64,000 nt of DNA from a virus. Below are positions 5,376-39,049 of the stretch, piece by piece (position 1 is the stretch's first letter; each line of letters opens with the position of its first letter). The notes below the pieces were generated by a model. That model searched no databases. It worked only from the letters and a program-made list of their open reading frames with translations, and was not told where the DNA came from. Position numbers and translations under genes: made by a program. The stretch is taken from IMG/VR virus record IMGVR_UViG_3300027857_000004, positions 1 through 64,000 of that record; one strand, given 5' to 3'.

Positions 5376-5397
5376 AAAACCACCGACTGTTAATAGT

Positions 5398-5769: not shown

Positions 5770-6401
5770 AAAGCTGTTCTCGTTGCAAAAAAGAAAAGCC
5801 ACTTTCAGATTTTTATACCTGCAAAGACGGACGTGTTTTGTCACATTGTAAAGAATGTGGACGCGCCCGGGCGTTGCGTTGGTATTCTGAAAACACAGAA
5901 AAAGCCCACTTGGCGATGGCAGCTTGGGTTGCTAAAAATCCGGAAGGTCGAAAACGAATCGCCAATAAATCTGCAAAAAAACGCCGTGATGCTGATTTGG
6001 AAGCTGCTAGGGCTTACGGGAGATTGCAGGCGAAGAAGCACAAACTGAATCGGTGGGCGTATCGTGCGAAGCAACGACAAGAAAACCCAGAATACAATTT
6101 GATAAACAATCTTCGATGCCGGATTTACGTGGCGTTGAAGGGCGCAAATAAGTCGGATACCACAAAATCTTTATTGGGGTGTTCGGTGGCTGAATTGAAG
6201 CTGCACTTGTCGGCTCAATTTAAGCCCGGCATGACCTGGGAAAACTATGGCCCAGTATGGCACGTAGACCACATTAAGCCATGTGCCAAGTTTGATTTGT
6301 CTAGGTCCGACGAACAAAAAAAATGTTTTCATTTTTCCAATTTGCAACCCTTGTTTGCTGTGGAAAATATCCGGAAAGGAGCCGCTTATCTTCACAGTTG
6401 A
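5766..6401 (+). CDS. HNH homing endonuclease
   Basis: N-terminal CxxC...CxxC; C-terminal GMTWENYG..WHVDHIKP...CFHFSNLQPL...N..K. Confidence 0.85.
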   Translation: MKSCSRCKKEKPLSDFYTCKDGRVLSHCKECGRARALRWYSENTEKAHLAMAAWVAKNPEGRKRIANKSAKKRRDADLEAARAYGRLQAKKHKLNRWAYRAKQRQENPEYNLINNLRCRIYVALKGANKSDTTKSLLGCSVAELKLHLSAQFKPGMTWENYGPVWHVDHIKPCAKFDLSRSDEQKKCFHFSNLQPLFAVENIRKGAAYLHS

Positions 6402-7395: not shown

Positions 7396-7400
7396 TCGCG

Positions 7401-9437
7401 ATGGCTTCAACGTTCGACAGTTTACCGCCAGGAACAAGGCTGCTCGACTTCGACAGCACTTGGCCCTCTGGCGTTCGGTCCGACACTGACCCGGCGCAAA
7501 CTCCGCTCGGTTACGCTTGGTCCGCCATTAACATGCTCAACGTGGGCGGCATGTGGGCTTGCCGTCCTGGTTACAAATGCTGGGCAACTCTTCCGGATGG
7601 AAATCTTCAGGGCGCCGCTATTTTCAGACCGTTAGTAGGCACGGAGATTTGTCTCGCTGCTGTTGATGGCGTAATCTACCGAAGCACGTTTCCGTTCACG
7701 ACGTTCACTCCGGTGCCCGGTCTGCTGTTCAGCCCATTCGCGGAGCAATTGTTTTTCGAGCAGACTTTCCAGTCAGCAGAACGCATAACGCCCAACAACC
7801 TCATTTCCGCCATAAAAATAATTCCGAGCAAAGCGGTCATGTTTATTCAGGATGGCGGCTTCTCAGCTCCAGGTTGGTTCGATGGCGCGAATGCCGGGCA
7901 GCTCGTTGGTGACCCGTTCGAAACTCCGAGCGGTTCAATGATGGTTTGGGTTGGTGACCGGCTCTGGGTAGCAAGTCAGGAGCAGCTTTTCGCGTCCGAC
8001 ATCGACAACCCATTTAGCTTTCGCGAAAACATTTATCTAGGCAGCGCAAGCAGCTTTTTCTTCGGTCATGAAATCACTGCGATGGTTCGGACTCCCGCTA
8101 TCGAGGCGCCGCAGCTCATGGTATTCACTGCCGTAAACGGTTCTATCGTTCAGGCGAACATCAGAGACCGAACGCTCTGGCCCACGACCGTGAATTTTCA
8201 ACAGGAAGTAATCCAGGTCGGAAATCTCTCGAACCGCTCGACCGTTTCGCACTTCGGGCATCTCGTGTGGTTCGGTCCGTCCGGCGTAGCCTTTTTTGAC
8301 CCGGCTCAATCTGGAAAAATCACAACGCGTTTGCCAACTCGTGACAACGAAATGTTGGTGAGTAAATCTACTCTCGATGATGACCTTTCGTTGGTGGCTA
8401 CAGGGGCTTTTGGTCAGTTTCTATGTATCAGCGTCCCCGCAGAAGATAGATTTAATTTGCATACTTGGGTTCTTAATCACGCTAGCTTCACTAGCTTGTC
8501 TGATGATTCTGGACCTGCTTGGGCAGGATACTGGCTAGGCACGCGCCCTGTGCAATGGATGGGCGGCACCGTTCAGGACGTCGAAAGATTGTTTCACGTA
8601 AGCGTAGACGACGATGGGAAAAACAGGCTGTGGGAAGTTTTCCAGCCCAACCGGCTCGACAATGGGTGCCCGATTACGTGGGCGCTTTTCACGCGCGGCA
8701 TGTTCGGTCAAACTGCTAACGTAACACCGAAACCGCCGGGCAGTAAAATACGTTTGAAGTGGGTAGACGTCGCTCTCAGTGCTGTTGAGGAAGACCTGGA
8801 CATCGCGGTTAAATACGCAGGTGGCATGAGCGGCTCGTTTAAATCGACTCTCGTAAAGAAGCTGGAAGTTGAGCGAGGTAGCTTGTCGAACGACACTGAA
8901 ATTGATATTAACTCTCCAATTTTTCAGTTCAAGCCGGAATCTCGAACGATTCGGACCGAAGATGCCGCAGAGCAAACCGCACCGGAAAGCGGAGCGTGCG
9001 GCGTAGAGAAGCATCAAGACGATTTTATTGATACGAATTTTCAGCTGCTGGTAGTCGGGCATGGACCGGTGACTATCCGCTGGATTCGTCCGGTGGCTAT
9101 CATGGAAGCACCCGAGCTTACCGGTAGCCCGTTTGCTTGCCAGGATGAAACCGGATTACACGCGGTTCGATACGATGGAGCAGCAACGAAAGCGGATACG
9201 TTTGCAGAGTTGGTCACCGCTCTCGCGAACGCGCCTGAAGATTTGTTCACCTCTGTGGAAACGGTTACGCTGACCGAAGACGGATTCGTTGGGACCGGAA
9301 TCGGCACAGCCGAGAGCATTGTTTCGCAACGCGCGGCTGACCGAGTGGCTCAGATTATCGCAACCAAGTTCGCAGAACAGGAGTTGTCTGCGTTGGTTCC
9401 TTTCATATATTCTACAGGCGAGGGCTTTGGGCCATGA
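7401..9437 (+). CDS. Putative tail nozzle / head-closure (tail tubular B- or P22 gp10-like) protein
   Basis: 678 aa, beta-propeller-like composition (WVGDRLWVA...LFASD); position in a podovirus-like tail module. Confidence 0.6.
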   Translation: MASTFDSLPPGTRLLDFDSTWPSGVRSDTDPAQTPLGYAWSAINMLNVGGMWACRPGYKCWATLPDGNLQGAAIFRPLVGTEICLAAVDGVIYRSTFPFTTFTPVPGLLFSPFAEQLFFEQTFQSAERITPNNLISAIKIIPSKAVMFIQDGGFSAPGWFDGANAGQLVGDPFETPSGSMMVWVGDRLWVASQEQLFASDIDNPFSFRENIYLGSASSFFFGHEITAMVRTPAIEAPQLMVFTAVNGSIVQANIRDRTLWPTTVNFQQEVIQVGNLSNRSTVSHFGHLVWFGPSGVAFFDPAQSGKITTRLPTRDNEMLVSKSTLDDDLSLVATGAFGQFLCISVPAEDRFNLHTWVLNHASFTSLSDDSGPAWAGYWLGTRPVQWMGGTVQDVERLFHVSVDDDGKNRLWEVFQPNRLDNGCPITWALFTRGMFGQTANVTPKPPGSKIRLKWVDVALSAVEEDLDIAVKYAGGMSGSFKSTLVKKLEVERGSLSNDTEIDINSPIFQFKPESRTIRTEDAAEQTAPESGACGVEKHQDDFIDTNFQLLVVGHGPVTIRWIRPVAIMEAPELTGSPFACQDETGLHAVRYDGAATKADTFAELVTALANAPEDLFTSVETVTLTEDGFVGTGIGTAESIVSQRAADRVAQIIATKFAEQELSALVPFIYSTGEGFGP

Positions 9438-10012
9438 AGTCGATAACATTTATTTACGCGTTAAAAGAGCCGGATACCGGAGAAATTCGATATGTGGGAA
9501 AATCGGATTCCCCAAAGGAACGCTTTAAACAGCATGTTCGAGAAGCCAAAAAAGGTGGGACGCACAACCGGACGTGGATTTTATCTTTGCAAAAATTAGG
9601 GCTTCTTCCGGTTTTGGAAGTTCTGGATTCTGTGCCTAGCGTAGAATGGGATTTTTGGGAACGGGAATACATTCGGCTGTTTAAAGCTTTGGGGTTTCGT
9701 TTGACCAATACCACGGAGGGCGGAGACGGAGTATTTTTACGAGTGCCTGGATTTACAGGTAAGAGGCATTCAGAAGAATCCAACGAAAAGAATCGTTTAG
9801 CGCATTTGGGTAAGAAAAGACCCCCAGAGGAGTGCGAAAAAATTTCTTTGGCTTTGAGAAAAAGGTCTGCCGAAGTTCGAGACCGGGCCGCTTCTAAATT
9901 GCGAGGCATTCCCAGACCAGTGCACGCCAAACCGTCTTTTGCAGGCCGAAAGCATTCATTGGAATCGCGATTAAAAATGAGCGAATCGGCAAAAAAGAGG
10001 AGGGTCGCGTGA
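9434..10012 (+). CDS. GIY-YIG homing endonuclease with NUMOD3-like motifs
   Basis: FIYALKEP...RYVGKS...RF.QH, LTN.T.GGDG, G.RHSEES and GRKHSLESRLKMSES. Confidence 0.85.
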   Translation: MKSITFIYALKEPDTGEIRYVGKSDSPKERFKQHVREAKKGGTHNRTWILSLQKLGLLPVLEVLDSVPSVEWDFWEREYIRLFKALGFRLTNTTEGGDGVFLRVPGFTGKRHSEESNEKNRLAHLGKKRPPEECEKISLALRKRSAEVRDRAASKLRGIPRPVHAKPSFAGRKHSLESRLKMSESAKKRRVA

Positions 10013-11364
10013 TTTCAAATTTGGTATTGGATACCTTATTTTCAAGGCGTCCAAAAATAAGGTATGTGTCTCCGCCGATTTGCGGGCTCATCCAGTCGCC
10101 CACAAGCTCCGGCGCCCCGGCAGTGTCGCTCGAAACAATCAGCCCATTGGGCACGGTTCATTACTTTTTCACTGATGGCGGTCTAACGTGGGACTCGTAT
10201 CCAGGCGCGATTTGTTACAATGTTTACCGTTCTAACCTGGGCTCGACTTCTTTTCTTGGGATTGTCGAGTGCGGACCGCAACAGATTTTGCCCGTCGACC
10301 CAGGGTGCTACGTTGTCACCGGGGTAACGCAGGATGGAGAAACACCATTCGGGCAGCCCATCTGCACTCAAACGCACATTCCGCCTTGCTCGGTGCCGGT
10401 GCATTATTTTATCACGGATGCTATCGGAGGTTTGGTGTTGCGTTGGGACGCTTTTCCAGATGCAACCTGTTACAACGTTTATCAGGACGGCACGAAAATC
10501 CAATCGTGCATACCTTTACAGGACGTGCCGGTCTCGCCCCCTTTAACGGGTCAGACTTGCTTTGTAGTCACCGCGATTGCTCCTTGTGGCGAAACTCCGC
10601 AGAGCACACCGGTTTGTTTGTCGCCACCTCCACCTCCGCCATTGCGAAATGGACTCGTGGGGTATTGGCCTTTGGATGAACAGGTAGGAGTTACCCCGGT
10701 CTATAATCCGCCCGCGATTGATTTTTCAGGAAACGGAGAAAATCTCCCACTTACGAACGGTCCGAGTGCACAATCGAACACCGGGCTCGTCAATCGCTGC
10801 TTTTTCCAGAGCACCAGTGCGAACCTGTCGCACCCGGACGATGCTTTTCTGGGCATGGGACCGGGCAAATCGTTTACCATGACCGGCTGGACATTGGGAA
10901 TTGGTTACGGATTCAGCAGTGCTATAGTCTATTCGAAATGGTCAGTCGCTAACAAAGATTATGCAGTTTATATCGCGGACGATGGGGTAAATTTTCAATT
11001 GAAGTTCACGGCATACGATTTGACGGGTTCGCCGCAAACCGCTATTTACGCGGTGCCAGTGGCAGGGCGCCCCAATAACACGGATTGGCATTTCATCGCG
11101 TTCGGATACGACGATTCTTTGCAGCAAATCTGGTTGCAGCTCGACAACGGAACAAAGGTAACCGCTCCGTGCGTTGGCGTTCATCGAACAGTGGCTCCAT
11201 TCGGTTTAGCGGACACGACCAACACGGCGGACATTGCGCCGTCTGCCGGTTCTATCGGTAATTACGACGAGACCGCTTTTTGGGACCGTCCGTTAACTGC
11301 GGCTGAACTGACTCTGATTTACAACACGAACCTGGGCGGCCAGCCGCTCTCAATCCTTATTTAA
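10009..11364 (+). CDS. Tail protein with duplicated FN3-like repeat and C-terminal LamG/concanavalin A-like domain
   Basis: Two repeats HYF.TD...L.WD..P.A.CYNVY...C.VVT.....GETP; then GLVGYWPLDE...WHFIAF.YD...G.YDETAFWDRPLT..E...IYN. Confidence 0.7.
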   Translation: MISNLVLDTLFSRRPKIRYVSPPICGLIQSPTSSGAPAVSLETISPLGTVHYFFTDGGLTWDSYPGAICYNVYRSNLGSTSFLGIVECGPQQILPVDPGCYVVTGVTQDGETPFGQPICTQTHIPPCSVPVHYFITDAIGGLVLRWDAFPDATCYNVYQDGTKIQSCIPLQDVPVSPPLTGQTCFVVTAIAPCGETPQSTPVCLSPPPPPPLRNGLVGYWPLDEQVGVTPVYNPPAIDFSGNGENLPLTNGPSAQSNTGLVNRCFFQSTSANLSHPDDAFLGMGPGKSFTMTGWTLGIGYGFSSAIVYSKWSVANKDYAVYIADDGVNFQLKFTAYDLTGSPQTAIYAVPVAGRPNNTDWHFIAFGYDDSLQQIWLQLDNGTKVTAPCVGVHRTVAPFGLADTTNTADIAPSAGSIGNYDETAFWDRPLTAAELTLIYNTNLGGQPLSILI

Positions 11365-11365
11365 T

Positions 11366-12199
11366 ATGGCACTCAAAGCAACAAACCTAACGCTGCAGGT
11401 GGCGCCGCTGCCTCCGACATTCAAAGGGACTCCGAACGATTTAGTCGCGCAAATCGTCGCGCGGACTCGAATTCTTTCGCCGAGCGGCACGAATTTCATT
11501 TTCATCGGCGACACCGAGCCGACGAGCAATGTGGGTCCGTGGCTCAAAGGCGGCACACAATGGTGGGTCTGGTCCGACACGCTAAATAAGTATGTCCCGG
11601 TCGACATTTCGGCATCGTTCACGATTCCATTTTGGGTCAGCAACTCGCAGCCTCCGAATGCTACGCCGCCGGTGTGGCTGAAGACCGAGAAAGACCAGAC
11701 TGACCAAACAATCGGTCAATTCGGAAATCCGGTAGGCTGGTTTTTCTGGAACCCGGCTACTTCGGCCTGGGTGCCGTGGAATTCTGAACCGATTTCTGGG
11801 CCAACATCTGCGCGACCGGCTAATCCGGAAAATCTTCAGCAATTCTATGACACTGATATCGGCTGCTTGATTTGGTTCGAGCGTAGCCAGTGGCGGACTG
11901 TGTCAGGCGTTCCCGGGGACGTCAAATCGGTTCTGTTCACCACCTTGGGGGCTGCCTTGATAGCGAACCCAGGCTGGGCAGTTGTTGGCGACGTCGCCCC
12001 TCAGTTGATTGGCCGGGTAATCATGCAGGCCACTCAAGACCCAGGTGCGACTCCGGCGGCTGTGCTAAATCCGCCAACGAACGTGCCATCGCGCGCGGCT
12101 TTCGACACGTTCGGTGAAAACTCCGGAATTCAGTCAAATCCAGGGAGCACGCTGACAATTCCGCCCCAGGTAGCGCTCTGGCACCTGTATAAGCAGTAA
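11366..12199 (+). CDS. Putative tail protein
   Basis: Trp/Pro-rich; GPTSARP...YDTDIG.LIWF and GVPGDVK are motifs typical of tail proteins. Confidence 0.55.
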   Translation: MALKATNLTLQVAPLPPTFKGTPNDLVAQIVARTRILSPSGTNFIFIGDTEPTSNVGPWLKGGTQWWVWSDTLNKYVPVDISASFTIPFWVSNSQPPNATPPVWLKTEKDQTDQTIGQFGNPVGWFFWNPATSAWVPWNSEPISGPTSARPANPENLQQFYDTDIGCLIWFERSQWRTVSGVPGDVKSVLFTTLGAALIANPGWAVVGDVAPQLIGRVIMQATQDPGATPAAVLNPPTNVPSRAAFDTFGENSGIQSNPGSTLTIPPQVALWHLYKQ

Positions 12200-12234
12200 T
12201 AGCGGTAAGGCCCGAATAGAGCGACTGTTAGTAG

Positions 12235-12675
12235 ATGATTCGTCGCTTGAAACGGCCAGATGAAATATCGCTTACGATTGAGAAGGTGATTTTGGGCTGT
12301 CCGGAGCGGAACTGGACACCAAAGCGCATTAGCGCGTGTTCGCTAGTTGAGGCGTTTTCACCGCGCGGTGAACAGGTGAACATCTACGGTGCGTTTGAGC
12401 CGGAGGCAGTTGGATTTTTGATAGGGTTCGTAATTGATGACCCGACGACCGGAGAGAAGACCGGCAGCGAAATGTGCTGGTTCGTGTTGCCCGAATACCG
12501 GGGAACTGGAGTTGCAAAAGCTTTGTTGGGTGCATTTGAAAGCGATGCTAAAGCGGCTGGAGCAACGCGAATGCTCGCTGGGTTTTCGATGTTCGTGCAC
12601 GTGCCGAAGATGATTAAGCTTTACAGGCATCTGGGGTATCAGCCCCATTTGGTGACGGTCAGCAAAAAGATTTAA
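12235..12675 (+). CDS. GNAT-family acetyltransferase
   Basis: WFVLPEYRGTGVA acetyl-CoA-binding motif and LY.HLGY; sits just before the ejection genes, as in many podoviruses. Confidence 0.85.
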   Translation: MIRRLKRPDEISLTIEKVILGCPERNWTPKRISACSLVEAFSPRGEQVNIYGAFEPEAVGFLIGFVIDDPTTGEKTGSEMCWFVLPEYRGTGVAKALLGAFESDAKAAGATRMLAGFSMFVHVPKMIKLYRHLGYQPHLVTVSKKI

Positions 12676-12676
12676 T

Positions 12677-13666
12677 ATGGGTGACGTTCTTGGATTCGTT
12701 GGGCAGCTCGGTGCGGCAGGCATTAGCGCGGAAGCGGCTCAGACCGCGCAGGAAATGCAGCTCGCTGCCATTCAGCAGCAGCGGCAGTTCGTCTATTCCA
12801 ATCTCGACCCGAGCGTAATCGGCTCAGCTGCCACTGCCGCTGATGCTGCTCGCGCAAAGAATCAGCTCGCGCTACAAGGACAGATTGACCCCGCACTGCT
12901 TCAGGCTAGGTATGCGAGCGAAGCGAAACTGAATTCAGACCTTTCGAGTCTGGGGGTTCAATCAGGACAAGTTGCTGACCAAGCGACGAAAGAAGCGCTC
13001 GCGGGCACACCCGGGCTGACCGATGCGAAAAACAAATTGGTAGATGCTGCGTTAGACCAGCTCAAGGCTGGCGCAACTCTTCCGCCCGATGTCGAGGCGC
13101 AGCTTGTCCAGTCCGGACTGGAAAATACCGGAACGGTCACCCAAGGCGTAGGCGGCGCTCAAGGAATCGGTGGCACGATGCTGAGAACGATTCTCGGAAC
13201 TGCCGGTGTGAACCTTCAGCTGCAGCGGCAGAATCAGGCAGCCCAGTTGCTGACGTCCGCTTCGAATCTCGATGCGCAACGGCAACAGATTCTGCAAGGA
13301 CTTTTTCCCAAGTTGCAGTCTCAACAGCTTTCAAATCTCGCAGGCGCCGGTTCTGTTTTTGGAACCGCGCAATCTGCCGCGCCGAATGCCGGGCTCAGTG
13401 GCCAAGACGTGGCTAACATTTGGCTCGCGCGAGTCGGTGCAACTAACTCGCTGACCGCGCAACAGGGTCAAGTGTTGGCTCAAGGCGCGATGAACCAGGG
13501 CAACATCTGGAGCAATGCGTTGGGCGGAGCGACCGGCTCGGTCGGAAACTCTCTGCCGACCTTGGCACAAATCGTTAAATCGTCCCCCTCGACAGGCTAC
13601 ACCCCGATAACGCCATCTGCCGCTGCGAGTGAAGGCGGAGATATTCCGATAAGCCCGAATTTTTAA
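12677..13666 (+). CDS. Putative internal virion / DNA ejection protein
   Basis: Ala/Gln/Gly-rich helical protein with a hydrophobic Gly-rich N-terminus; follows the GNAT gene. Confidence 0.6.
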   Translation: MGDVLGFVGQLGAAGISAEAAQTAQEMQLAAIQQQRQFVYSNLDPSVIGSAATAADAARAKNQLALQGQIDPALLQARYASEAKLNSDLSSLGVQSGQVADQATKEALAGTPGLTDAKNKLVDAALDQLKAGATLPPDVEAQLVQSGLENTGTVTQGVGGAQGIGGTMLRTILGTAGVNLQLQRQNQAAQLLTSASNLDAQRQQILQGLFPKLQSQQLSNLAGAGSVFGTAQSAAPNAGLSGQDVANIWLARVGATNSLTAQQGQVLAQGAMNQGNIWSNALGGATGSVGNSLPTLAQIVKSSPSTGYTPITPSAAASEGGDIPISPNF

Positions 13667-13672
13667 AGCCGC

Positions 13673-14152
13673 ATGATACTCAATAACGGCTGGACAGTTA
13701 ATACCTTGATTCCTCAATCGGTCCGCGACCTGATTGGGACATTCGGCACTTCGTCCAGCACTCAGGTTGACCCCTCCGCATTGGCGGAAAGAAAAGACAT
13801 GATGGCAGAAGGCTACCGTGGCTTTTTCAGACCGCTACCCAGGCAGGTGGCGCCACCCGCTCCGGCGCCCGCAACGCAGCCGGTGTCTGTTCCTGCTTCG
13901 CCCAGTCTGTTATCGGCAGTCTTCGGAAACGGTAACAAGCCGGTGCAGAATTTTAACGCGTCTGGGAATTTTCAACCGGTGCCGCCGCCTGAACCGAGCA
14001 GCCCGTCATTTTTTCAGGTGCCTTCATTTTCGGAATCCGGTTGGGTAAGTCCGACTATGGATTCGAGCGGCTTTTATCAGATTCCTAAGTCAACACCGTC
14101 GAACGTCAGGCCGATAATGCCGGTAGCGTCGACTCAAATGCAACCGAGATAA
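13673..14152 (+). CDS. Pro/Ser-rich hypothetical protein
   Basis: 159-aa ORF tightly spaced between ejection-type genes. Confidence 0.55.
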   Translation: MILNNGWTVNTLIPQSVRDLIGTFGTSSSTQVDPSALAERKDMMAEGYRGFFRPLPRQVAPPAPAPATQPVSVPASPSLLSAVFGNGNKPVQNFNASGNFQPVPPPEPSSPSFFQVPSFSESGWVSPTMDSSGFYQIPKSTPSNVRPIMPVASTQMQPR

Positions 14153-14156
14153 TTTT

Positions 14157-15887
14157 ATGGCAGGAATAGGTCAAGATGCAGCGCCCGTTTCAGTTCCGGA
14201 AGGTCCGCTAGTTTCGCCGTCTGTGCTGCCCGACCAAAACGCGGCAGTTCAGAACATGATTGATGCGTTTCACAAGGGCTTTATAACTAGCCAGGACATT
14301 GTGGACAGGATTGGCGACCGCGGACAAGCTCAGAAAAAGGCGTTGCTTGAATCTCTCGGTGAATACGTTTCGCCTGACGCGATTAACTCGCGCATGGCTG
14401 CTTACAAGGCATCCGGTGCGCAGTCCGCTCTTGCGACTCAGGCTGCCCAGGCGCAATCAGCGGCTGGACTGCCCCAGGCGACCGCAGGACTCGCTGCGAC
14501 ACAAACAGCGGCTGCCCAAGCGGCAACCGTTGGGGGCGCCGCCGGTCTTCAAGCTTTTCAATCTTACGCACCGTGGTATGGCGAATCGCCGGACGACTAC
14601 AAGACGTCTACCGGCGCACCGGACTTCGCTGCGATGACGTCGCGCGGCAACAAGATGAACGCCGAAATGGCGCTCTCGCAAAACTGGATTAGCCAGCTCA
14701 CCCCGGCTACGGACAGGACTGTAAAGGATGCCGCCGGTGGCGAATACACTCAGAAGCTAAATAAGTTCGGCGTGAACGTAACGCCTCCGGACCCGAATTC
14801 TGGCTACCCAGGTTCGCCCGCATACTGGGCCTATGTGAAGCAGCTCGATAAGGTGCTGCCGGAGTTTCATCCGATGCGCGGTCAGTTTTTGATGACTCCG
14901 ACAGGTGGTGATGACACAGTTCCTGGGCATCCGGCTGGAACCGTTTCGCCGCACACTCCGGCGCCCGTCCAAGGTGCACCCACGATATACGGCACCGGCG
15001 TGACCGGCGGAGAACCTGCCCAAATTTCTGCGGCTCGTGCGCAGCTAGTGAACAGCGGCATGGAACCGGTTGCGGTGAATCAGCTCACCCCCGCGCAAGT
15101 TCAATCGCTTGTCACTCCGGCTGCCCCATCGTTGCCGGGTATTCCTCCGACCGCTCCGGTGATTCAACCTGCTGCTTCCACACCTACCGCAGCCGGGCTC
15201 ATCCAACCTGGAGTGCCTCCGGCATCCGCTCTCGGTGTTCCAACTGTCGCGGCGAAAGGTTCGTATCAAACGCCGAGCGACATCAAAACACAGTTGGTGT
15301 CCGACCCGGTTTACAAGACGTTCGCTGAGCAGCAAAAATACGCTGAGAACTTCAAGACCGTCGCGGACGCAATCGAATCGTCACCGGCGCCGAATAAGAA
15401 AGTTCAAATCAACAACGATATCGGGCTCGCCGAAAGCATCATCAAACTGTATGACCCGCAAGCCGCGTTGCGCGAATTCAAATGGTCAAAACTTGAGGAA
15501 GCTCAGCCTTGGCTGGAAAAAATCGGCGCGCTAAAATCGCTTGTGCTGCGAGAGGGCGCTTTCACGCCTGAATCTCGCCAGCGGTTGATTAAGATGGGCG
15601 ACGATATCATTAACGGCATGGAAAGCTCGGTGAAAGGCCGGTTGCAACAGGCCGATTCGATTGCCCGCGCGTCCGCCCAGACCGCCGGGCAAGACCCACA
15701 GACTTGGTCTAACCAAACGTTAACTTCGAACGAGAAGCGAATTTTGGCTGGTCAACCTTTTCGAGAGAGCGGTGCATCGGCAGCTACTGGCGCAATGCCA
15801 AAAGGTGTTCCACCTGGGTCTGTCCCGATGAATATTCCAGGCCGCGGCACAGTGTGGAAATCGCCAACCGGTCAATTCTTCCAATAA
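14157..15887 (+). CDS. Putative internal virion / DNA ejection protein
   Basis: 576 aa, Ala/Pro/Gln-rich; C-terminal helical region containing IIKLYDP..ALRE. Confidence 0.55.
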   Translation: MAGIGQDAAPVSVPEGPLVSPSVLPDQNAAVQNMIDAFHKGFITSQDIVDRIGDRGQAQKKALLESLGEYVSPDAINSRMAAYKASGAQSALATQAAQAQSAAGLPQATAGLAATQTAAAQAATVGGAAGLQAFQSYAPWYGESPDDYKTSTGAPDFAAMTSRGNKMNAEMALSQNWISQLTPATDRTVKDAAGGEYTQKLNKFGVNVTPPDPNSGYPGSPAYWAYVKQLDKVLPEFHPMRGQFLMTPTGGDDTVPGHPAGTVSPHTPAPVQGAPTIYGTGVTGGEPAQISAARAQLVNSGMEPVAVNQLTPAQVQSLVTPAAPSLPGIPPTAPVIQPAASTPTAAGLIQPGVPPASALGVPTVAAKGSYQTPSDIKTQLVSDPVYKTFAEQQKYAENFKTVADAIESSPAPNKKVQINNDIGLAESIIKLYDPQAALREFKWSKLEEAQPWLEKIGALKSLVLREGAFTPESRQRLIKMGDDIINGMESSVKGRLQQADSIARASAQTAGQDPQTWSNQTLTSNEKRILAGQPFRESGASAATGAMPKGVPPGSVPMNIPGRGTVWKSPTGQFFQ

Positions 15888-15888: not shown

Positions 15889-18800
15889 ATGGCAGACCCG
15901 ATTACATTGACGCCGGACGAAATCGCTTCGGCGACTCCAATCACTCAGCCTACTGCTCAACCGGTGCAGCTCACGCCGGAAGAGATTGCTTCTGCTCAGC
16001 CGGTCAATCAGGCAAACCCGGTAAATCCTATTCGTGATTTCACGCCGGACCAGCTCGTCGCTCTCCAACGGCAAGCACCTGAGAGTTTCGATATCATTCA
16101 GCAATTTCTCTCCGACCCGACCGCGCAAAAAGACCCTGCCGTTAGGCGGAACGCTGAGCAGGCGTATCATCAACTCCGCCAAGAGCCGTGGTATCACGAT
16201 TTGCCGACACCGGCGCAAATGGCGGGGTCTGTTGGCACTATCGTCAAAGGTTTCGGCAAGCAGGCGAGTAATTACGCCTATGCGGCAGCTGGCGCGCCCG
16301 CACTCGGAATCGCAACCGCAACCGGCGCAGGTGATGAACAATCCCGCCAAGAACTGGCGACCGAAATTCAGAACAAGATTGCAACGAACTGGGCAGGCAC
16401 AGAGACCGGTCTCACCGGATTAATTTCGCAGATTGGCAAAGTAGTCAGCGCAACAGGCCGGGTGCTCCATATAAACAAGCAGCTCGCCGACTACACGCCG
16501 GAAGACAAAAGCGCAGCTTTTCAAGACGCGCTAACCCAGGCGCAGCAAATTCAATCAGCGATGAAGGGACAGGGACCGCTCATGCAAGCGGTGGGCGGCA
16601 ACATCGTGCCGTCACTGAATCTCAAACCCGAAGAAGTTGCCACCGCAGCCGCTGGCGACCCATTTTCGTGGGAAGCGATGGGGACTGGATTAGGCGCAGC
16701 CGGGAAGCTAACGCGCGCCGCGATTCCCGAGGCGGCTCGCGCGGCGATTCAAGATGTTTCGCAACGGGCAGTCGACACACTCGCCAAAGGTGTGACCATT
16801 CCCGCCGGTGCTGCTATTTCATCTTTTGGCAAACTGGCCGGTATGGGAATCGAAAGAGCCCCCGGCGCAGCGGCTGCCGGAGCTGTTCTTGGCGCCACTC
16901 ACGCACTCGGTCTCCCCGGTGAACTTAGCGGCTTCTTGGCTGCCGGTTTAAAAGACATTCGGTCTGCCCCGATAACTCGGCTAGGTGAAGCAGTCGGTCA
17001 AGCTGCCTCTGAGGCACCCGCATTCGGGCGACAAATTACCGGCGCTGAACCGGTCACCGGCGCCTACGCTCAATTAGGACGCGATATCGTCAAATCGATT
17101 CCCACTGCCGTAGCAGATATCGGCAAAGGCGCGGCATTCGACCTGGGGCTCGCTGCGACGTCTGACACGCCGCAGGAAAAGCAAGCGGTTGGGCTGGGCA
17201 CAACGTTAGGAATTCTCGGAGGCGTAGCTGGCGCAGGAAAACGCGCTCTAACCGGACAGCTAATTGCACCGCGCGAATTCACCGGCAACGCGAACTATTT
17301 ACCAGGAACTGGAACAGTTCCGATTTTGGAAGATTTGACCCGGCAAACGTTCCCCAGCATGACGCCGGGCCAGCGTGTCCGGTTCAACGCGACCAGAGAT
17401 TTTCTGCGCGGCGCGAATCCGAATGCAGACATTTTCGTCAGCTCTGGCTCAGATGCGACAGCTAAAGCGTTGACCGACCTTGGCTACTCGCCGGACGATG
17501 CTGCCCGGCTCAGCTCACAAGGTGGCGTCACAACCGAAATTAACGGTCACAAAGTCGCCATCGTCAATGCCGACAGCTTTGATACCGCGCCACACGAAGC
17601 TCGCCACGCGATTGAGAACGTAATGGGCGAGCAGGCACTCCGCCAGCTCGATGACGAAATCAGTTCCGCATACGGAACTAAAAACATGGACGCTATCGGG
17701 CGCTATTACACGTCCAAGATATTTCAGGGGCGAGACCCGGGCGCAAATTGGCAGACGCCTCTTCTCGATATCACGGGCGAAGGCGAGCGGATGGCGCGTG
17801 AGAAATTAATTCAGCAAGGAGTGCCGGACGACCAACTCAAACAGCAATCGTCCGACTGGGGAAATGTTTTGACTCCGGCGGAGATGCAAGACGCAGCGAA
17901 CCGTTACGTGGCTCGCGAAATCGCCGCAGAGAATTTCAGCACTTGGTTCAGCAAGATGGGCGGAGACGTCAACGCGAAACAACAGGTGCCCGAGAAGCTC
18001 GCGCAATGGACAGCCGCCGTGATGAGAACCTTCGGCGCTGAACCGCTCGCCGGTCAGGTCAGTCCGCTTGGATTGCCGCTCTCCAGCAAAGTGATTCAAC
18101 GAGTGGGTGAGCAGGCGCGTGAGTTGACCCGACCGAGTGTCGAACCGGCTGAAGAACCAGCTACCGGTGCGCCGAGACCCCCGGAAAAGGAAGCGCGCAA
18201 CGCAGTCGAATTAGCGAGAACCGCGCCCGATGTTCCGGTAGCCGGTGGCACGAAATCGCAGCGTGAAATTCTCGGGACCGTCGCCGAAGCGATAGCGAAC
18301 CGGACCGGCGTAAAGCTCAATTACCTGTCAGCGCCGGAGGAACCGGCTGCCGCTACGACGTCAAACCGGCCAGTTCGGCGTCAGATGATTGAGATTTTTC
18401 GCTCGATGCCGGAGTCGGCACGCAAACTCTGGGAGAAAACTTTCTTCCCCGACAAAGTCACGAAGTCGAAAAAGGGTTATCAAATTCAAGGCTGGGCACC
18501 GGAAGTCTTTGCCGCCAATGCGCACAAGTTGGCAGGCACAATCGCCAGCACGCCGGAAATGGCTGGCCTGTCTCCGTATGAAGTCGACCCGGCAACAAAG
18601 TCATTTACGCCAGAAGCTTGGCAGCAACTGTATAACGACACCAGCCGATTTGTGGCGAATCAGCAGTCCGGACGCACCGGTTCAGGTGTCCCTCTCGAAG
18701 TTCCGCCGGGAATGCAAGAGAAGGGATTTTTCAAACCGCCGTTGAAACCGGGCGCAGGTTCGCTCGACCAACGCAAGGCCGATTTTATTTCGATGCTTTT

Positions 18801-21800
18801 CAACTTCAAGCTGCCTGACACTGCGCGGCTCGGAGGTGGAAAGTTCCCGCTCAATGTCGCCGGGCAGGAAGTAAGCAAAGCGACTATCCCGGGACGCATT
18901 GAGTCGCCAGTGATTCCCAGACCGGAATTTACAGAGGGCGCAGTCAAGAAGTTTCCCGAACTGCAAGGCAGACAGATTCTGGAAGTCAATCCGGTCCGGA
19001 ACGAATTCGAGAATGCGGCGCTGAAGGCGAATAAGCCGATGCCTTCGTTCATCGAATCCGTTCAGAAATTAAACCTGGAGCACATCAAGGAAGCGGAACA
19101 CGCTCCGGAAGCGTCTCCGGAATTCCGCGGCAACACTTTAACACTGTCAGCCGGATTCGCGCCGAAAACGAACGAGCCGCGAGCCGTTAAAATGGCGGCT
19201 ATTCGCGACGAAGGCACCGGCAGGGTTTTCGAGGGTCCGATGCATGCGTCCGCTACGCTCGACTGGCTGCGCGACAAGCACGCTGACAAAATCGATGAAG
19301 CTGGCAATCTGCCGCCCGAAGTAGAATTGGATGCCTGGAATTCGCACCCCAACGTAACCGAAGGATTTACTACAAACAATGGTGAGTTTCTTAACCGAGA
19401 AGAGGCGTTCGAAAGAGCCCAAAGCTTTGGTCAGATGCCAGCTGCTGTAGACGAACCTGGGGCTTCTTTAGAATCCACCGCATTTGAAAAACACAAAAAG
19501 TTAATATCTGCGTTCGCTCCAGCTTCTCGTGAGCAGATGGCAGAATATGAACGTCAACGAGCCGCCTACGAAGCGACTCCCTGGTGGAAGCGTCCACCCG
19601 TAGGGGAGACCGAAACCGGACGGCACACTTCCTACGCCGGTGACCCGGAATCGGGTTTAGTTCTGCACAGCGCGAAGCAGCGCAGCACCGTTTTCGTCAG
19701 GCCGGGAAACGAAGCGAACGCTTTTCTTTCGAAGTGGCAACAGGCGCCGAACCAAGCGGCAAAAGACCAAGTGGTGGAATCTTATTTCGGTCCGACTGGT
19801 GCGCAATTTGCGCCCGATAAAAAGACGTTCATCGTTCGGCACGGCTCGACCGAAATGAACAACTCGGACCCGGACAAAGACTTGATTCGCGGCCATATCG
19901 ATGTTCCGCTCGATGATAAAGGCAGACGCGAAGCGGGTGAGGCTGCTCAGAATATCGCCGACCAAGGCGGAGTTAACCACGTCATCGCGTCCGACTTGGG
20001 TAGGACGCAAGAAACCGGCCAGATAATCGCCGATAAGAACGGCGCGACAATGGAATTAGACCCGGGGTTGCGGCCTTGGAAGTTCGGTCCGACAATCGAA
20101 GGCAAGCCGACGGCGAAGATGCTGCCTGAGATTAAGCGGCTGACCGAGAACCCGGATGAGAGACCGCCCGAGGGTGAAACGTTCAACGAATTCAAAGACC
20201 GCTTTCTGGACGCTTTCCATCGCGCGCAAGAGAATCACGCCGACAAAAACACTGCGATTGTGACGCACTACCGAGGCACGAAGTTGCTCGATGCGTGGCG
20301 CGCTACCGGAACTGACAACGACACAATCGACAAGGCTATTTTCGAGAAATACGACAAAGACAAAACGCCGGGCAACGTTGACGTTGTCGACAAAGCCGGT
20401 GCTGAGCTAGCGCCAGAGCCTGAGAAACAACCAGCAGTCGATAAAGCGGCTGAGTTAATGCGGGATGCGAATGACGATGTCAGCCGACAATGGGCAAGCG
20501 AAGCAGCCGCGCAATTCGCCGCGAAAAAACCTGTCGAAGGTGGGCGAAAATCCAAACAGGATTGGACACTGCGAGAGGGGCCGGGTCTTTTCAGCAAAGC
20601 GTGGATTCTGCCCGATGGCAAACCGGTTCAGCTTGGCGGCCAATGGCACCACGAGTGGCTGAATGAGAATCCGAACATCGCGAAAAAATATGGTCTTAAA
20701 ACTACCACTAGCGCTGAAGACAACCGTTCTGAGGCTTTGCAAAAAGGGTTCGCTCGTGTTAACTATGAAAAAAACACCGGCACGCTCAAGGTCGAAGCTC
20801 GCGCGCAGGATTGGCAAAAAATAGCACCGGCAATCAGGCAGCTAGCGGAAACTAATCTGCGCAAAATCGACAACATGGACGTTCATCTGCTCGACTCCAA
20901 AGCGCAGCGAATAGTCGACTCTGATGGGGTGGCATTGCACACATACGACCCGGGCGAGAAGATGGACCATCTTCCGATGATATCGGAGCCGACGAGCACG
21001 ACCACGATGAGTGCACAAGCTCCAGCAGAAAAAGCTCAATTTTCACCTAGTAAAAAAGAAGATAAAATAAGAGCGGTTGAAAGATACAAACAATTTTGGA
21101 TTTTGAACAATGGTGAAATAGTGCCTTCTCCAGAAGGGCACATGGCTTCTGCTAGAGACGTGCTGCCCCACGAAACCATATTAGAAGACCGTAAAACTGG
21201 TGTGGCAGGTTCCTTATATGATAGCATGCAAAACCGGGGGCATCTTCGGGGCATGCTAATGGAATATCCAAACAAAAGCATAGAAATTGAGGGGTCGGTA
21301 AAAGTGCCAGTGTCCAGATTAGCAAAAGAATCCATAGAAGATATTTCACACGCTCTCGAAAGACCAGCAAATATAAATGGAAAGCGACTGGAGACTGGTT
21401 TTCCGGAAGAACAAGGTCCGGGCCTCGTCTCAAATCAATTCGCACCGAGCGACCATCCGCGCGCTATTCGCGGCGCCGCTGTGCGTGACCGTGAGACCGG
21501 TAAGATTTACGAGGGTCCGATGCACTTCTATGCGTTGCAGCGAGCGGAAGAGGCGGGCGCGACCGGGATACATGACGAAGGTTTTATGACGAACAGCGGC
21601 GAGTTTTTGAATCGCCGAGAAGCATTTGACCGAGCAAAAGAACTAGACCAGTTGAAGACGCCGGAAACTCCGCAGCAAGCGGAAGCGTTGGAACGCGCAG
21701 AGCGATTCGGCGCGTTATCGGAACAAGTCAAAGGCATCCAATTCGCGCCACCGAATCAAGACGAGCTGGACAAAATCAAATCGGGCGAATCGTTCGGTCA

Positions 21801-23559
21801 AACGTTCAACCAGGACGGTTCGGTATGGCAGCCCACAAACAAAAAGCAGGATATCGTCACACTCGCCAGTGTCAACATTCCGACTGCCCAATTGAGTCAG
21901 GACGAAGTCCAGAAAGCATCTGCCCCCTACTCCGATTTGCTGAACAATCCGAATGTCAAACTCGGTGCGTTCAATTTCGAGCAGGCCGGTAAGCCAATGA
22001 CGAGTATCGATATCAACGCCATCGTGCCGCAAGCACACCGCGAGAATTCGCTCAAGTTCGCCAAGGACAACGACCAGATGGCGATTTTCGATATGGCGAA
22101 AAACGATGTGGTGAACACCGGCGGCGCCGGTAACACGAAGCTGACCACTCCGGCGCACATTGCCAAAGCTCTGCCCGCGCTACTCGCTGGAGAACCAGTT
22201 GATGTCGACCGGATTTTAGCTGCCCAACATCGCATAGCGTCGAACATTCCGGCTGGCAAAAAGCCTTTGCCTGTCAGTGACGACTTGTCGGTCAAGTCAG
22301 CTCTCGCGCAGACGACGATGGACAAGTTCACCACCGAAGTTGCGGACCGAATCAAAAGCAATCCAGGTTTTCGAGACATCAAAGGAACGTCTCCAGAGAA
22401 AGTCCTGCCGCAGATTGTGAATCGGATGGCTGAGAATATCCGTTTCCTTTTCGACAAAGCGACCGATGCGAACAAAAAACTGTGGAAGCAATGGTATGAC
22501 ATCGCGAACGATTTAAGCCATCGCCTGGGTGGCGAATTCGAGCTGCCCCACTTTGCTGTCGCCGGTATCAATGCCCGGCTCTCGCCGCAAAAAGATTGGT
22601 ATATGAACGTGACGCTGACTCGCAAGCTTCTTCAGACCGTTGCGGCGGACCCGGCGTGGAGCGAAAGCGACAAACTGTTCACGCGGTCAGTTCTGGAGAA
22701 CGCCGAAACAGCGCGCCGCAAAAAATTAGCCGATGACGGCGAAACTCCGACCCAGAAAAGTATCGATGCATTTAACGACCGCATTGCGAACGTGGAGAGC
22801 ATTCCGGAAGGAAAACGAGTAAGCGAAATGACGCCGGAGGATGCCGCTTACTTGATTCGCAGTCACAACGAACTGAAGGGCGACAAAATAATTGTCGACC
22901 ACAATTTCAAGCCGGTCAAGGGAGCGGGCAAACTGACGTGGCAGACATATGAGGCACTCTCTGATGCGTTGAAGATTCTGCGCAACCCGACTCTCGAAGA
23001 AATCAACACCCAGCTCGGGAGCAACCACAAGGTCAGAAGTTTTTATAACAATCACGTCGACCCGATGAACCCACAAGACGTGACTGTCGACACTCACGCC
23101 GTCGCAGCTTCGCACTTAATGCCCTACGGGAGCAAGAACAAACCTATCTTGGAGAACTTCGGAGCGGTCCGGCACAAAAACTCCGGCTACAACGGAAGCT
23201 ATTTCGTGACTGCCGATGCGTATCGGCAGGTTGCAAAAGAAGTTGGCTTACTCCCGCGCGAAGTTCAATCTATCGTGTGGGAACAAATGCGCAACACGCT
23301 GACACCGGCAGGAAAGCGGACACCTGGATTGGTGAAGCAGACCGACGCAATCTGGGCGAAAGCAGAGAAGGGAAAAATCACTCGCGACGAAGCACGCAAC
23401 CAGATTTACAGCCTTTTCGAAAAGGTCAGCGGTAACAAAGCGAGCAAAGGTCAAGCGGACTGGTATGACGAGTATCTGGCGAGCAAAGAGCAAGCGTTCG
23501 CAAAAGATTTCGAAGGTAAAGAAAGTCTAACACATGAAACTGCCGAACAGCCATTTTAG
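15889..23559 (+). CDS. Large polyvalent internal virion protein (HExxH peptidase-like, histidine phosphatase, duplicated small modules, HhH-glycosylase-like C-terminal domain)
   Basis: 2556 aa. HEARH at 17593-17607; IVRHG...RGHIDVPL...SDLGRT...GETF...IVTH phosphatase at about 19825-20400; LSPQKDW...KVRSFYNN...VTVDTHA...QSIVW at about 22490-23290. Confidence 0.75.
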   Translation: MADPITLTPDEIASATPITQPTAQPVQLTPEEIASAQPVNQANPVNPIRDFTPDQLVALQRQAPESFDIIQQFLSDPTAQKDPAVRRNAEQAYHQLRQEPWYHDLPTPAQMAGSVGTIVKGFGKQASNYAYAAAGAPALGIATATGAGDEQSRQELATEIQNKIATNWAGTETGLTGLISQIGKVVSATGRVLHINKQLADYTPEDKSAAFQDALTQAQQIQSAMKGQGPLMQAVGGNIVPSLNLKPEEVATAAAGDPFSWEAMGTGLGAAGKLTRAAIPEAARAAIQDVSQRAVDTLAKGVTIPAGAAISSFGKLAGMGIERAPGAAAAGAVLGATHALGLPGELSGFLAAGLKDIRSAPITRLGEAVGQAASEAPAFGRQITGAEPVTGAYAQLGRDIVKSIPTAVADIGKGAAFDLGLAATSDTPQEKQAVGLGTTLGILGGVAGAGKRALTGQLIAPREFTGNANYLPGTGTVPILEDLTRQTFPSMTPGQRVRFNATRDFLRGANPNADIFVSSGSDATAKALTDLGYSPDDAARLSSQGGVTTEINGHKVAIVNADSFDTAPHEARHAIENVMGEQALRQLDDEISSAYGTKNMDAIGRYYTSKIFQGRDPGANWQTPLLDITGEGERMAREKLIQQGVPDDQLKQQSSDWGNVLTPAEMQDAANRYVAREIAAENFSTWFSKMGGDVNAKQQVPEKLAQWTAAVMRTFGAEPLAGQVSPLGLPLSSKVIQRVGEQARELTRPSVEPAEEPATGAPRPPEKEARNAVELARTAPDVPVAGGTKSQREILGTVAEAIANRTGVKLNYLSAPEEPAAATTSNRPVRRQMIEIFRSMPESARKLWEKTFFPDKVTKSKKGYQIQGWAPEVFAANAHKLAGTIASTPEMAGLSPYEVDPATKSFTPEAWQQLYNDTSRFVANQQSGRTGSGVPLEVPPGMQEKGFFKPPLKPGAGSLDQRKADFISMLFNFKLPDTARLGGGKFPLNVAGQEVSKATIPGRIESPVIPRPEFTEGAVKKFPELQGRQILEVNPVRNEFENAALKANKPMPSFIESVQKLNLEHIKEAEHAPEASPEFRGNTLTLSAGFAPKTNEPRAVKMAAIRDEGTGRVFEGPMHASATLDWLRDKHADKIDEAGNLPPEVELDAWNSHPNVTEGFTTNNGEFLNREEAFERAQSFGQMPAAVDEPGASLESTAFEKHKKLISAFAPASREQMAEYERQRAAYEATPWWKRPPVGETETGRHTSYAGDPESGLVLHSAKQRSTVFVRPGNEANAFLSKWQQAPNQAAKDQVVESYFGPTGAQFAPDKKTFIVRHGSTEMNNSDPDKDLIRGHIDVPLDDKGRREAGEAAQNIADQGGVNHVIASDLGRTQETGQIIADKNGATMELDPGLRPWKFGPTIEGKPTAKMLPEIKRLTENPDERPPEGETFNEFKDRFLDAFHRAQENHADKNTAIVTHYRGTKLLDAWRATGTDNDTIDKAIFEKYDKDKTPGNVDVVDKAGAELAPEPEKQPAVDKAAELMRDANDDVSRQWASEAAAQFAAKKPVEGGRKSKQDWTLREGPGLFSKAWILPDGKPVQLGGQWHHEWLNENPNIAKKYGLKTTTSAEDNRSEALQKGFARVNYEKNTGTLKVEARAQDWQKIAPAIRQLAETNLRKIDNMDVHLLDSKAQRIVDSDGVALHTYDPGEKMDHLPMISEPTSTTTMSAQAPAEKAQFSPSKKEDKIRAVERYKQFWILNNGEIVPSPEGHMASARDVLPHETILEDRKTGVAGSLYDSMQNRGHLRGMLMEYPNKSIEIEGSVKVPVSRLAKESIEDISHALERPANINGKRLETGFPEEQGPGLVSNQFAPSDHPRAIRGAAVRDRETGKIYEGPMHFYALQRAEEAGATGIHDEGFMTNSGEFLNRREAFDRAKELDQLKTPETPQQAEALERAERFGALSEQVKGIQFAPPNQDELDKIKSGESFGQTFNQDGSVWQPTNKKQDIVTLASVNIPTAQLSQDEVQKASAPYSDLLNNPNVKLGAFNFEQAGKPMTSIDINAIVPQAHRENSLKFAKDNDQMAIFDMAKNDVVNTGGAGNTKLTTPAHIAKALPALLAGEPVDVDRILAAQHRIASNIPAGKKPLPVSDDLSVKSALAQTTMDKFTTEVADRIKSNPGFRDIKGTSPEKVLPQIVNRMAENIRFLFDKATDANKKLWKQWYDIANDLSHRLGGEFELPHFAVAGINARLSPQKDWYMNVTLTRKLLQTVAADPAWSESDKLFTRSVLENAETARRKKLADDGETPTQKSIDAFNDRIANVESIPEGKRVSEMTPEDAAYLIRSHNELKGDKIIVDHNFKPVKGAGKLTWQTYEALSDALKILRNPTLEEINTQLGSNHKVRSFYNNHVDPMNPQDVTVDTHAVAASHLMPYGSKNKPILENFGAVRHKNSGYNGSYFVTADAYRQVAKEVGLLPREVQSIVWEQMRNTLTPAGKRTPGLVKQTDAIWAKAEKGKITRDEARNQIYSLFEKVSGNKASKGQADWYDEYLASKEQAFAKDFEGKESLTHETAEQPF

Positions 23560-36635: not shown

Positions 36636-36681
36636 ATTTCAATTAATGTATCAGTTTTCGACCACCTACACAACTCATCTT

Positions 36682-36714
36682 TTTTCGCGCGGGTGGCTGG
36701 TTAGCGCGCGAAAA
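36682..36714 (-). terminator. Hairpin terminator after the 36729..36923 gene
   Basis: TTTTCGCGCG...CGCGCGAAAA inverted repeat. Confidence 0.5.
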
Positions 36715-38197: not shown

Positions 38198-38437
38198 TTA
38201 GCTAAAATACGATTCGATTAAGTGGTCACGCTCGATGCCTGTCTTCGCCTTCCGGAGACGGGTGACAAACTTTGCCGCTTTCGCCGGAGCGAGAAACACG
38301 GTGTTTCGGAGTTTCGCACTGTGCAACACAATCCCATCTGCTACGCTGCCCGTCCAGCTGCAATGCCGGTTGTGGTTGTCTTCCACCTTTTCAGTGGCAC
38401 GATTATTCATCGCGATTATTTCAGTAAGTCCGTGCAT
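38198..38437 (-). CDS. 79-aa protein paralogous to a module of the giant virion protein
   Basis: RHCSWTG...GIVLHSAKLRNTVF...IESYF aligns with RHTSYAG...GLVLHSAKQRSTVF...VESYF encoded at 19621-19788. Confidence 0.8.
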   Translation of the reverse strand: MHGLTEIIAMNNRATEKVEDNHNRHCSWTGSVADGIVLHSAKLRNTVFLAPAKAAKFVTRLRKAKTGIERDHLIESYFS

Positions 38438-39006: not shown

Positions 39007-39049
39007 GCCAAAAGAATATCACACCTCGCGAAACTGTCAACAGTTTGTT

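Follow-up and report, generated by a model that had tools for sequence, protein, structure and literature searches.

The locus studied here raises the question of how a small domain came to stand twice in one virus genome, once as a gene of its own and once inside a giant protein, and what the two copies do for the virus. The stretch analysed, hereafter the window, comprises bases 1-64000 of the 72,597-base virus record IMGVR_UViG_3300027857_000004, which bears direct terminal repeats. The giant multi-module protein (P0001, 2556 amino acids (aa)) is encoded on the plus strand at 15889..23559, as defined from the list of open reading frames (ORFs), its translation and Pfam, and the stand-alone gene, coding for a protein of 79 aa (P0002), lies on the minus strand at 38198..38437. 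The embedded copy, module M2 of the giant, was delimited with the family profile to residues 1211-1306 (19519..19806, +), and its conserved core, residues 1245-1300, is encoded at 19621..19788 (+). The reading that we favour, by a modest degree of confidence, is that the two are old paralogues, the free form being a core gene of the replication block and the embedded form one of the interchangeable beads that make up the variable C-terminal cargo of a giant of the polyvalent type. The giant would travel with the virion and be cut after the phenylalanine of its junctions, probably by its own zincin-like domain, and the cut would free the bead with nearly the same ends as the free product, so that the same activity might come from two sources.

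Translation of 19621-19788 (+) reproduced the peptide reported in the preliminary description, RHTSYAGDPESGLVLHSAKQRSTVFVRPGNEANAFLSKWQQAPNQAAKDQVVESYF, within the 2556-aa ORF. The BLASTP comparison of the genome's own proteins that was proposed there aligned residues 19-78 of P0002 with residues 1240-1300 of P0001 at 52.4 bits (E 3e-13), with 25 of 61 positions identical, 37 of 61 positive and one gap, and the asserted paralogy thus holds. In a control of 1000 shuffles of the module the best score was 23.5 bits, against 50.8 bits for the true pair. Searched in six frames with the small protein, the entire genome of 72,597 bases showed two matching places only, the free gene itself (E 1.2e-51) and the embedded module (E 2.6e-11), and the converse tblastn search, with the embedded module as query, gave an E of 7.8e-12. 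The profile of 77 family sequences matches the giant at residues 1212-1305 (domain E 4.6e-25) and covers in this module only profile positions 11-81. The alignment stops at F1300 of the giant, paired with F78 of the 79-aa protein, and AQFAP follows at residues 1305-1309; the match therefore reaches the C-terminus of the small protein and is soon succeeded by the linker word, as had been described. The first helix of the free protein is MHGLTEIIAMNN, and M2 carries instead a different N-terminal stretch, EQMAEYERQRAAYEATPWW.

That the similarity would be due to chance, or that the 79-aa ORF would not be a gene, is refuted for practical purposes, and we leave it next to no probability. No strong Shine-Dalgarno sequence was visible by eye, and the start of the ORF overlaps the upstream ORF by 22 nt. 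Against this reading stand, however, the E value together with the shuffle control, the 89 clusters in which free proteins of like length keep the same ends, the conserved position beside a helicase gene and the confidently predicted fold.

The history of the two copies was studied with a maximum-likelihood tree of 43 rows and 82 columns, in which support is given as ultrafast bootstrap (UFBoot) and Shimodaira-Hasegawa-like approximate likelihood ratio test (SH-aLRT) values. The free copy of the window is placed within a clade of ten rows consisting of free copies only (98/86), and the embedded copy pairs with the embedded module of another giant, P0032 (96/80), to which it is 51% identical over 67 columns. 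When the two window copies were forced together, the cost was 45.9 log-likelihood (lnL) units, and the approximately unbiased (AU) test gave a p-AU of 0.042. As the copies belong to separate supported clades, the paralogy is old and not the product of a recent recruitment, and the pair does not provide the direct evidence of recruitment of this phage's own free gene that had been claimed for it. Taken literally, such recruitment would be a recent duplication within the genome, and the presence of both copies in one genome agrees with it. The copies are, however, just 41% identical, the bead is closer to the module of P0032, and both the separate clades and the forced pairing speak against the duplication, which is already disfavoured and in our judgement highly unlikely. 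As far as the tree can tell, the bead has been inherited or exchanged among giants, as part of a lineage of embedded modules common to them, and not lately copied from the free gene of its own genome. The label free or giant changes five times on the tree, supported branches force at least three changes, and none of the 200 bootstrap trees needs only one; repeated switching between the free and the embedded state is likely but not secure.

The homologues of the free gene are 73-87 aa long and show 64-72% identity. The gene lies in a minus-strand replication block that includes genes for a DNA polymerase, exonucleases, a RuvC-like resolvase, a sigma-factor-like protein and a helicase, just downstream of the SNF2-type helicase gene and upstream of a pentapeptide-repeat gene. 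The helicase gene adjoins it in all seven loci examined (the window and six related IMG/VR loci), and the downstream neighbour differs among the related loci. The free gene was present in each of the six records with a completeness of at least 90% (G000, G001-G004 and G006); among the fragment records it was present in G005 and G010 and not found in G007, G008 and G009. Because all six near-complete genomes have it, we regard it as a core and not an accessory gene of this uncultured soil phage lineage of about 72 kb, and the activity in host takeover or anti-defence that had been suggested for it gained no support. A sigma-70-like promoter consensus (TTGACA-16-TATTCT, with TG present) occurs at 39013..39040 (-), between the helicase gene and the cluster of small genes that includes the free gene. 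It is a consensus match only, and the region contains six such sites against 2.6 +/- 1.7 in shuffles. Together with the place in the replication block, this putative promoter gives a weak hint of early expression. No RNA run was listed for 36500-40500; the one run listed there was soil-metagenome DNA, which may be the source of the present sequence.

Two neighbours of the free gene were recorded as well. Eight bases downstream of it, the product of 37467-38189 (-) is a pentapeptide-repeat protein in which DUF5758 forms the C-terminal part (Pfam E 1.6e-43 and 7e-20), and in relatives this slot is filled by other genes. The ORF of 76 aa at 38416-38646 (-), the one overlapping the free-gene start by 22 nt, contains a motif ..L-P-x-x-H-P-A.. 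that also occurs in the ORF preceding the free gene in relatives L003 and L005; other relatives lack it.

The giant gene is the final large gene of a plus-strand block that also contains tail-fibre-like genes. Seven x-F-[A/S]-[P/A] motifs divide the C-terminal 1470 residues of the protein into beads, giving eight segments in total. After the N-terminal part, M1 (residues 1092-1208) is the first copy of what is here called module A, and M2, the embedded copy of the small domain, follows it. M3 (residues 1309-1542; 19813..20514, +) is a histidine phosphatase beginning directly after AQFAP, M4 (residues 1545-1717) and M5 (residues 1720-1850) gave no match, M6 (residues 1853-1951) is the second copy of module A and M7 (residues 1954-2556) contains DUF7178, all on the plus strand. 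The Pfam matches on the giant were His_Phos_1 at residues 1314-1465 (E 2.9e-30) and DUF7178 at residues 2175-2276; no literature on DUF7178 was found. The segments are mutually unrelated apart from M1 and M6, and with M2 bounded by junction motifs the sequence supports a resemblance of the giant to a string of independent beads. When the eight segments were searched across the genome, only M2 matched outside the giant, and the cargo of other giants matched only the free gene in this genome. Longer alignments of the P0054 and P0039 cargo, continuing past the free gene, were judged to be same-frame extensions and rejected. No further pair of a free and an embedded copy was thus found in this genome.

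M1 (19162-19512, +) and M6 (21445-21741, +) are themselves paralogous (41% identity in tblastn, E 6e-16; 45% in a MAFFT alignment) and begin equally far past a junction (..FAP-x-x-x-PRA[V/I]..). Free homologues of module A of similar length were not found in a word-based search, the sensitivity of which is limited. PF26092 is given for P0001 and many of its relatives in precomputed annotation and was not reported by the present Pfam scan. In hydropathy the giant showed a single weak maximum (1.21, residue 324) and no clear membrane segment.

A word-based search for related giants listed 100 proteins of 1405-3510 aa; their contigs reach about 78 kb, and the majority of the longer contigs measure about 70-75 kb. 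The first approximately 1100 residues of the giant are 35-47% identical among the relatives, and the subset of beads differs from one relative to the next. According to Pfam, the cargo of the relatives includes ART-PolyVal, radical SAM, methyltransferases, a nicotianamine-synthase-like domain, DUF3293, LRV and His_Phos_1, and GNAT was named in the precomputed annotation list only. The embedded copy of the small domain was found in seven of the 100 related giants, in two of the six giants of the records at least 90% complete, and in one of the nine complete giant frames of the IMG/VR loci. Most related giants (L015-L019, L023-L038, P0032, P0039 and P0072) share the tail ..[I/V]-[Q/E/T]-P-R.. 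in their last eight residues, which may be a terminal signal; the giant of the window, unlike these, ends in ..ETAEQPF. Among 50,697 phage records, neither megablast of the giant gene, tblastn of its residues 1-1100 nor tblastn of the small protein found any match, and to judge from its sequences the lineage is far from the characterised phages.

M2 is bounded upstream by the junction S-A-F-A-P (residues 1207-1211; 19507..19521, +) and downstream by A-Q-F-A-P (residues 1305-1309; 19801..19815, +), the latter four residues past the ESYF with which the match ends. The word QF[ASMT][PA] occurs five times in the giant, against a mean of 0.36 in shuffles (maximum 3, n=300). QF dipeptides number 572 in the cargo of the 100 giants, against 277 expected, and 147 in their N-terminal 1000 aa, against 167 expected. 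Proline stands two residues past QF in 297 of the 572 cargo cases, the proline frequency being 0.063, and QF.P was thus counted 297 times in the cargo and 17 times in the N-terminal parts. In other ORFs of the genome QF.P has single occurrences, with no pattern at protein ends. Because QF.P is enriched across the cargo of the giants, the AQFAP of the window can be read as the local version of a Q-F-x-P junction that is general in the family. None of the papers listed on internal virion proteins, polyproteins and ejection proteins concerned such a junction, as judged from the listing.

The ends of the beads were surveyed in 17 embedded copies, from 16 giants and one fragment of 348 aa. Ten of the 17 start with M-[H/F/W/Y]-x-[L/P] immediately after the F or Y of a junction, as in relative G004, in which ...PKVQF is directly followed by MHSPEGIKKMN; one further copy has I for M, and one comes after Y-S-P. 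At the other end, E-x-x-F is the final residue of the giant in two copies and runs directly into [M/L]-P in three, and in nine the next [Q/R]-F junction comes 3-13 residues later. The free members typically start with M-[Y/H/F]-x-L and have E-x-x-F 0-1 residue from the C-terminal end in 45 of 94 proteins, E-S-Y-F being the conserved ending of the family. Since the ends of the beads are close to those of the free proteins (Met...Phe), a cut after the junction Phe would free a look-alike of the free protein, and we infer from this agreement, the main argument for cleavage, that such a cut takes place.

The conserved N-terminal part of the giants, about 1100 aa, contains an HExxH domain (17263..18222, +; HEARH at residues 569-573), identified from alignment, the AlphaFold2 (AF2) model and structural matches as a candidate zincin-like peptidase. 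HExxH is present in 95 of the 100 giants and invariant in alignment A4 of 15 sequences, in which E219 of the modelled segment is also near-invariant. The search for related loci retrieved none with a single HExxH segment and succeeded with an alignment as query. In the AF2 model (predicted local distance difference test (pLDDT) 82.6) the HExxH helix comes after three strands. An exhaustive structural search with it ranked zincin-type folds first, namely the Certhrax N-domain (Z 7.2, root-mean-square deviation (rmsd) 4.6, 170 residues aligned), anthrax lethal factor (LF; Z 7.0, rmsd 4.5, 168 aligned), PPEP-2 (Z 6.9, rmsd 3.7, 151 of 185 aligned) and PPEP-3 (Z 6.1, rmsd 4.1, 157 aligned); a Z of about 7 is middling by the note of the tool. 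The next matches, neprilysin, Zmp1, thermolysin and collagenases, had Z values of 3.7-4.5. The likeness of the modelled domain to the M34 zincins (anthrax LF and PPEP-2/3) would lie in an HExxH on the helix that follows a three-stranded sheet, and the difference lies in that none of them matches the domain at the sequence level. As endopeptidases, LF and the PPEPs cleave at short linear motifs, and a Pro is fixed in the junction described here. On the basis of the model, the domain is likely but unproven to be a zincin-like peptidase. It is unproven because the top zincin-type Z values reach only the middling range, Foldseek gave nothing at E<=1e-3, Pfam gave for residues 461-780 no peptidase family and none of any kind at E<=5, the sequence-profile search of PDB gave 0 matches at E<=10, and hhalign against the metallopeptidase (MPTase) region of the virion RNA polymerase (vRNAP) of phage N4 (gp50, residues 2050-2550) was not significant (probability 0.6, E 0.095).

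These results bear on an explanation in which the giant is never cut, the Q-F-x-P words are flexible hinges, the bead acts as an adaptor or scaffold in cis, and the free paralogue has a separate job in replication. Precedents for it are the N4 vRNAP, ArdC and TraC1, which according to the main text of PMC5512222 have MPTase domains and are still packaged or transferred without being cleaved. It is also favoured by the different first helix of the window's bead and by the conserved Cys of R-x-C-[S/T], found in 61 of the 94 free copies and in none of the 13 embedded ones (in the free gene of the window it is C26, codon 38360-38362, -). A plain hinge would, however, not need a conserved word enriched in the cargo only, the bead boundaries match the Met...Phe ends of the free proteins, and an invariant HExxH domain goes along with the cargo. 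We therefore hold an uncut giant to be unlikely, though the strongest of the alternatives to release of the beads.

The family of the small domain was collected with a six-sequence profile (A1) searched against 1.84 billion representatives of 50%-identity clusters at E<=1e-3. The search yielded 118 matches; six of these, with multi-stretch matches (P0063, P0096, P0097, P0103, P0113 and P0118), were low-complexity repeats and were removed, leaving 112 genuine ones. By length the 112 clusters comprise 89 of <=131 aa, 12 of 132-400 aa and 11 of >1500 aa, and all members found sit on viral or metagenome contigs. In 185,579 species genomes covered by a scan of prokaryote contigs nothing credible was found for the family, a 22-residue match in a membrane-protein ORF of an Acidobacteriales metagenome-assembled genome being judged spurious. 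P0002 matched no Pfam family at E<=0.1 and nothing in PHROGs, no name was attached to any of the ten family clusters looked up, and the sequence-profile search of PDB returned a lone match of a 14-residue stretch (E 0.025). The family is thus without a name here, and the supplementary domain alignments of PMC5512222 could label it 'LPD'.

Near-invariant in the family are N11, S27, H39, S40, A41, R44, T46 and F57, including the hairpin H-S-A-x-x-R-x-T; K42 lies between A41 and R44 and is invariant in A1 (six sequences) only. The AF2 model of the free protein, built from 77 sequences (pLDDT 91.7), has a helix at residues 4-14, strands at 27-31, 35-40 and 45-49, and helices at 51-63 and 67-76, and so predicts a small alpha/beta fold in the order of one helix, a three-stranded sheet and two helices. 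Foldseek against PDB gave no match at E<=1e-3, and a search of BFVD found a single uncharacterised viral protein (E 2.1e-4). The fold search of the Atlas gave no usable match by features and, for the embedded module, nothing above 0.78. The nearest named neighbours are weak: a PqqD cluster in the Atlas (template modelling (TM) score 0.57/0.65 over 60 residues), TbiB1 with a leader peptide (PDB 5v1u; Z 2.8, rmsd 3.6, 47 residues) and lasso B1 (Z 2.2). Like PqqD and the leader-peptide recognition domains of ribosomally synthesised and post-translationally modified peptides (RiPPs), the small domain is predicted to have a three-stranded sheet packed on helices, but the 79-aa model differs from them in an extra N-terminal helix and in only two helices after the sheet. 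PqqD (PF05402) did not match P0002 at E<=0.1, nor was it among the 25 listed of the 26 Pfam families matched by 77 family members at E<=1. Tentatively, and with more doubt than confidence, the domain may be a non-catalytic binder of a protein, peptide or nucleic-acid/phosphate ligand, held through the H-S-A-x-x-R-x-T hairpin.

The same weak neighbours, PqqD-family and leader-peptide binders, suggest another role for the free protein, that of a trans-acting partner (a peptide-binding factor or chaperone) for the junctions or the Phe-ended products, in which case it would not be a second dose of an effector. The free gene co-occurs with the giant in all six complete genomes while the bead is optional, and its C-terminal E-S-Y-F resembles the P-side of the junction. 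Every structural similarity is, however, below the levels that the tools treat as meaningful, Pfam gives no PqqD match, and it would be awkward for a partner to be sometimes a bead of its own substrate; a partner of this kind seems improbable to us. Still more speculative, and a long shot in our view, is the specific form in which the free protein would be a reader like PqqD or a RiPP recognition element (RRE), binding Q-F-x-P junctions or Phe-ended products and passing them to the zincin or to packaging, with the beads as self-service readers. Prediction of a complex between the HExxH domain (A4) and the free protein (A2) returned no answer (score 0.00 in two runs), which speaks neither for nor against binding.

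The reading of old paralogues with a core free gene and a releasable bead has several further results to contend with, besides the searches listed above that leave the HExxH domain unproven. The stricter form of the junction, F-[MSA]-P, has a median of just one per giant, and the canonical first helix is missing in five of the 17 embedded copies, that of the window included. With the Cys present in many of the free copies and absent in the embedded ones, the two forms may differ in function. When all 13 giant modules were held as one clade, the cost was 26.7 lnL and the AU test did not reject it (p-AU 0.176), and the number of switches between the free and the fused state depends on a tree of 82 columns. 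The best Z of a wide structural search of PDB with the 79-aa model was just 3.4, so that function is not readable from the fold, and the weakness of the PqqD neighbours tells in the same direction. Finally, the large plus-strand ORFs at 1-15887 and 59076-64000 gave no PHROG or Pfam match to a capsid, portal or terminase, the exceptions on this strand being collagen-like tail-fibre matches at 3002-5154; with the structural genes recognised only as tail-fibre-like, the virion context of the giant is read from gene order.

The concept nearest to the favoured reading is that of the polyvalent proteins of phages and conjugative elements (Iyer, Burroughs, Anand, de Souza, Aravind 2017; PMC5512222). 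As set out in the main text of that work, such proteins combine disparate domains in one polypeptide, next to late genes, with a zincin proposed to separate the units and an MPTase core of three strands before the HExxH helix, with a Glu further on in a second helix; the domains also occur solo, from which the authors argue for 'repeated accretion from solo modules'. The giant of the window resembles them in its several unrelated domains (eight junction-bounded segments, with His_Phos_1 and DUF7178), in a domain that is also solo in related elements (89 free clusters against 11 in giants) and, less securely, in the candidate zincin-like HExxH domain predicted in the model. PF18760 ART-PolyVal was matched in the homologous giants P0127 (E 2e-17) and P0186 (E 2.9e-15), which ties the lineage to the polyvalent class; in the Pfam scan of the window's own giant, none of the domains catalogued in that work was found. 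The differences are that the main text of PMC5512222 nowhere uses the terms 'histidine phosphatase' and 'linker', the giant here having both the phosphatase and an explicit Q-F-x-P junction, and that the HExxH domain matches no Pfam model.

Among individual phages, N4 provides a comparison, its vRNAP having an MPTase domain at aa 2130-2448 and being packaged and injected according to the main text of PMC5512222. The likeness to N4 gp50 (EF056009) consists of a giant protein in a phage of about 70 kb with terminal repeats. No homology to gp50 was detected (hhalign probability 0.18 against its residues 1-1000), and N4 differs in that no RNA polymerase module was found here and a sigma-factor-like protein is encoded instead.

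The internal proteins and Alt of T4 and the Dar proteins of P1 enter the head, are shortened by a protease and, once injected, act before phage gene expression. Each comes from a small gene of its own and has a targeting peptide, and the prohead protease does the cutting. In the present phage no prohead protease was recognised, and the cargo forms a single chain together with a candidate peptidase of its own. The processing of DdrB and DarA of P1 is covered in the main text of PMC5512222.

Some other features of the genome were noted. Genes of the homing-endonuclease type (HNH, endonuclease VII-like, GIY-YIG and NUMOD3) are unusually many and spread over both gene blocks (5766-6401, 9434-10012, 35691-36245, 40458-40973, 42491-43069, 47973-48503, 52689-53246 and 56229-56774). 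A serine recombinase with Resolvase and Recombinase domains is encoded at 57438-58319 (+), and relatives of this recombinase-bearing phage were not found in any prokaryote genome scanned. The 444-aa protein at 54890-56224 (+) has an Ice_binding-like domain (Pfam E 1.3e-60). Past the window, at L020 6352-8917 (genome 67351-69916), two nucleotide-sugar epimerase-like genes lie beside a Mom-like DNA-modification gene, which as a combination of sequences hints at modification of DNA or of surface sugars.

That solo domains are accreted into polyvalent proteins has already been published as a general principle, and the gain from this locus is therefore incremental. What is added to the published concept is an unnamed small family, an explicit junction word and the coincidence of the bead ends with the ends of the free proteins. 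A sizeable, unnamed, virus-only family is defined, and its small free gene is an easy handle on the role of one cargo bead. The pair of free and embedded copies also offers a natural measure of the places at which a polyvalent protein may be cut, and it predicts cleavage after the junction Phe.

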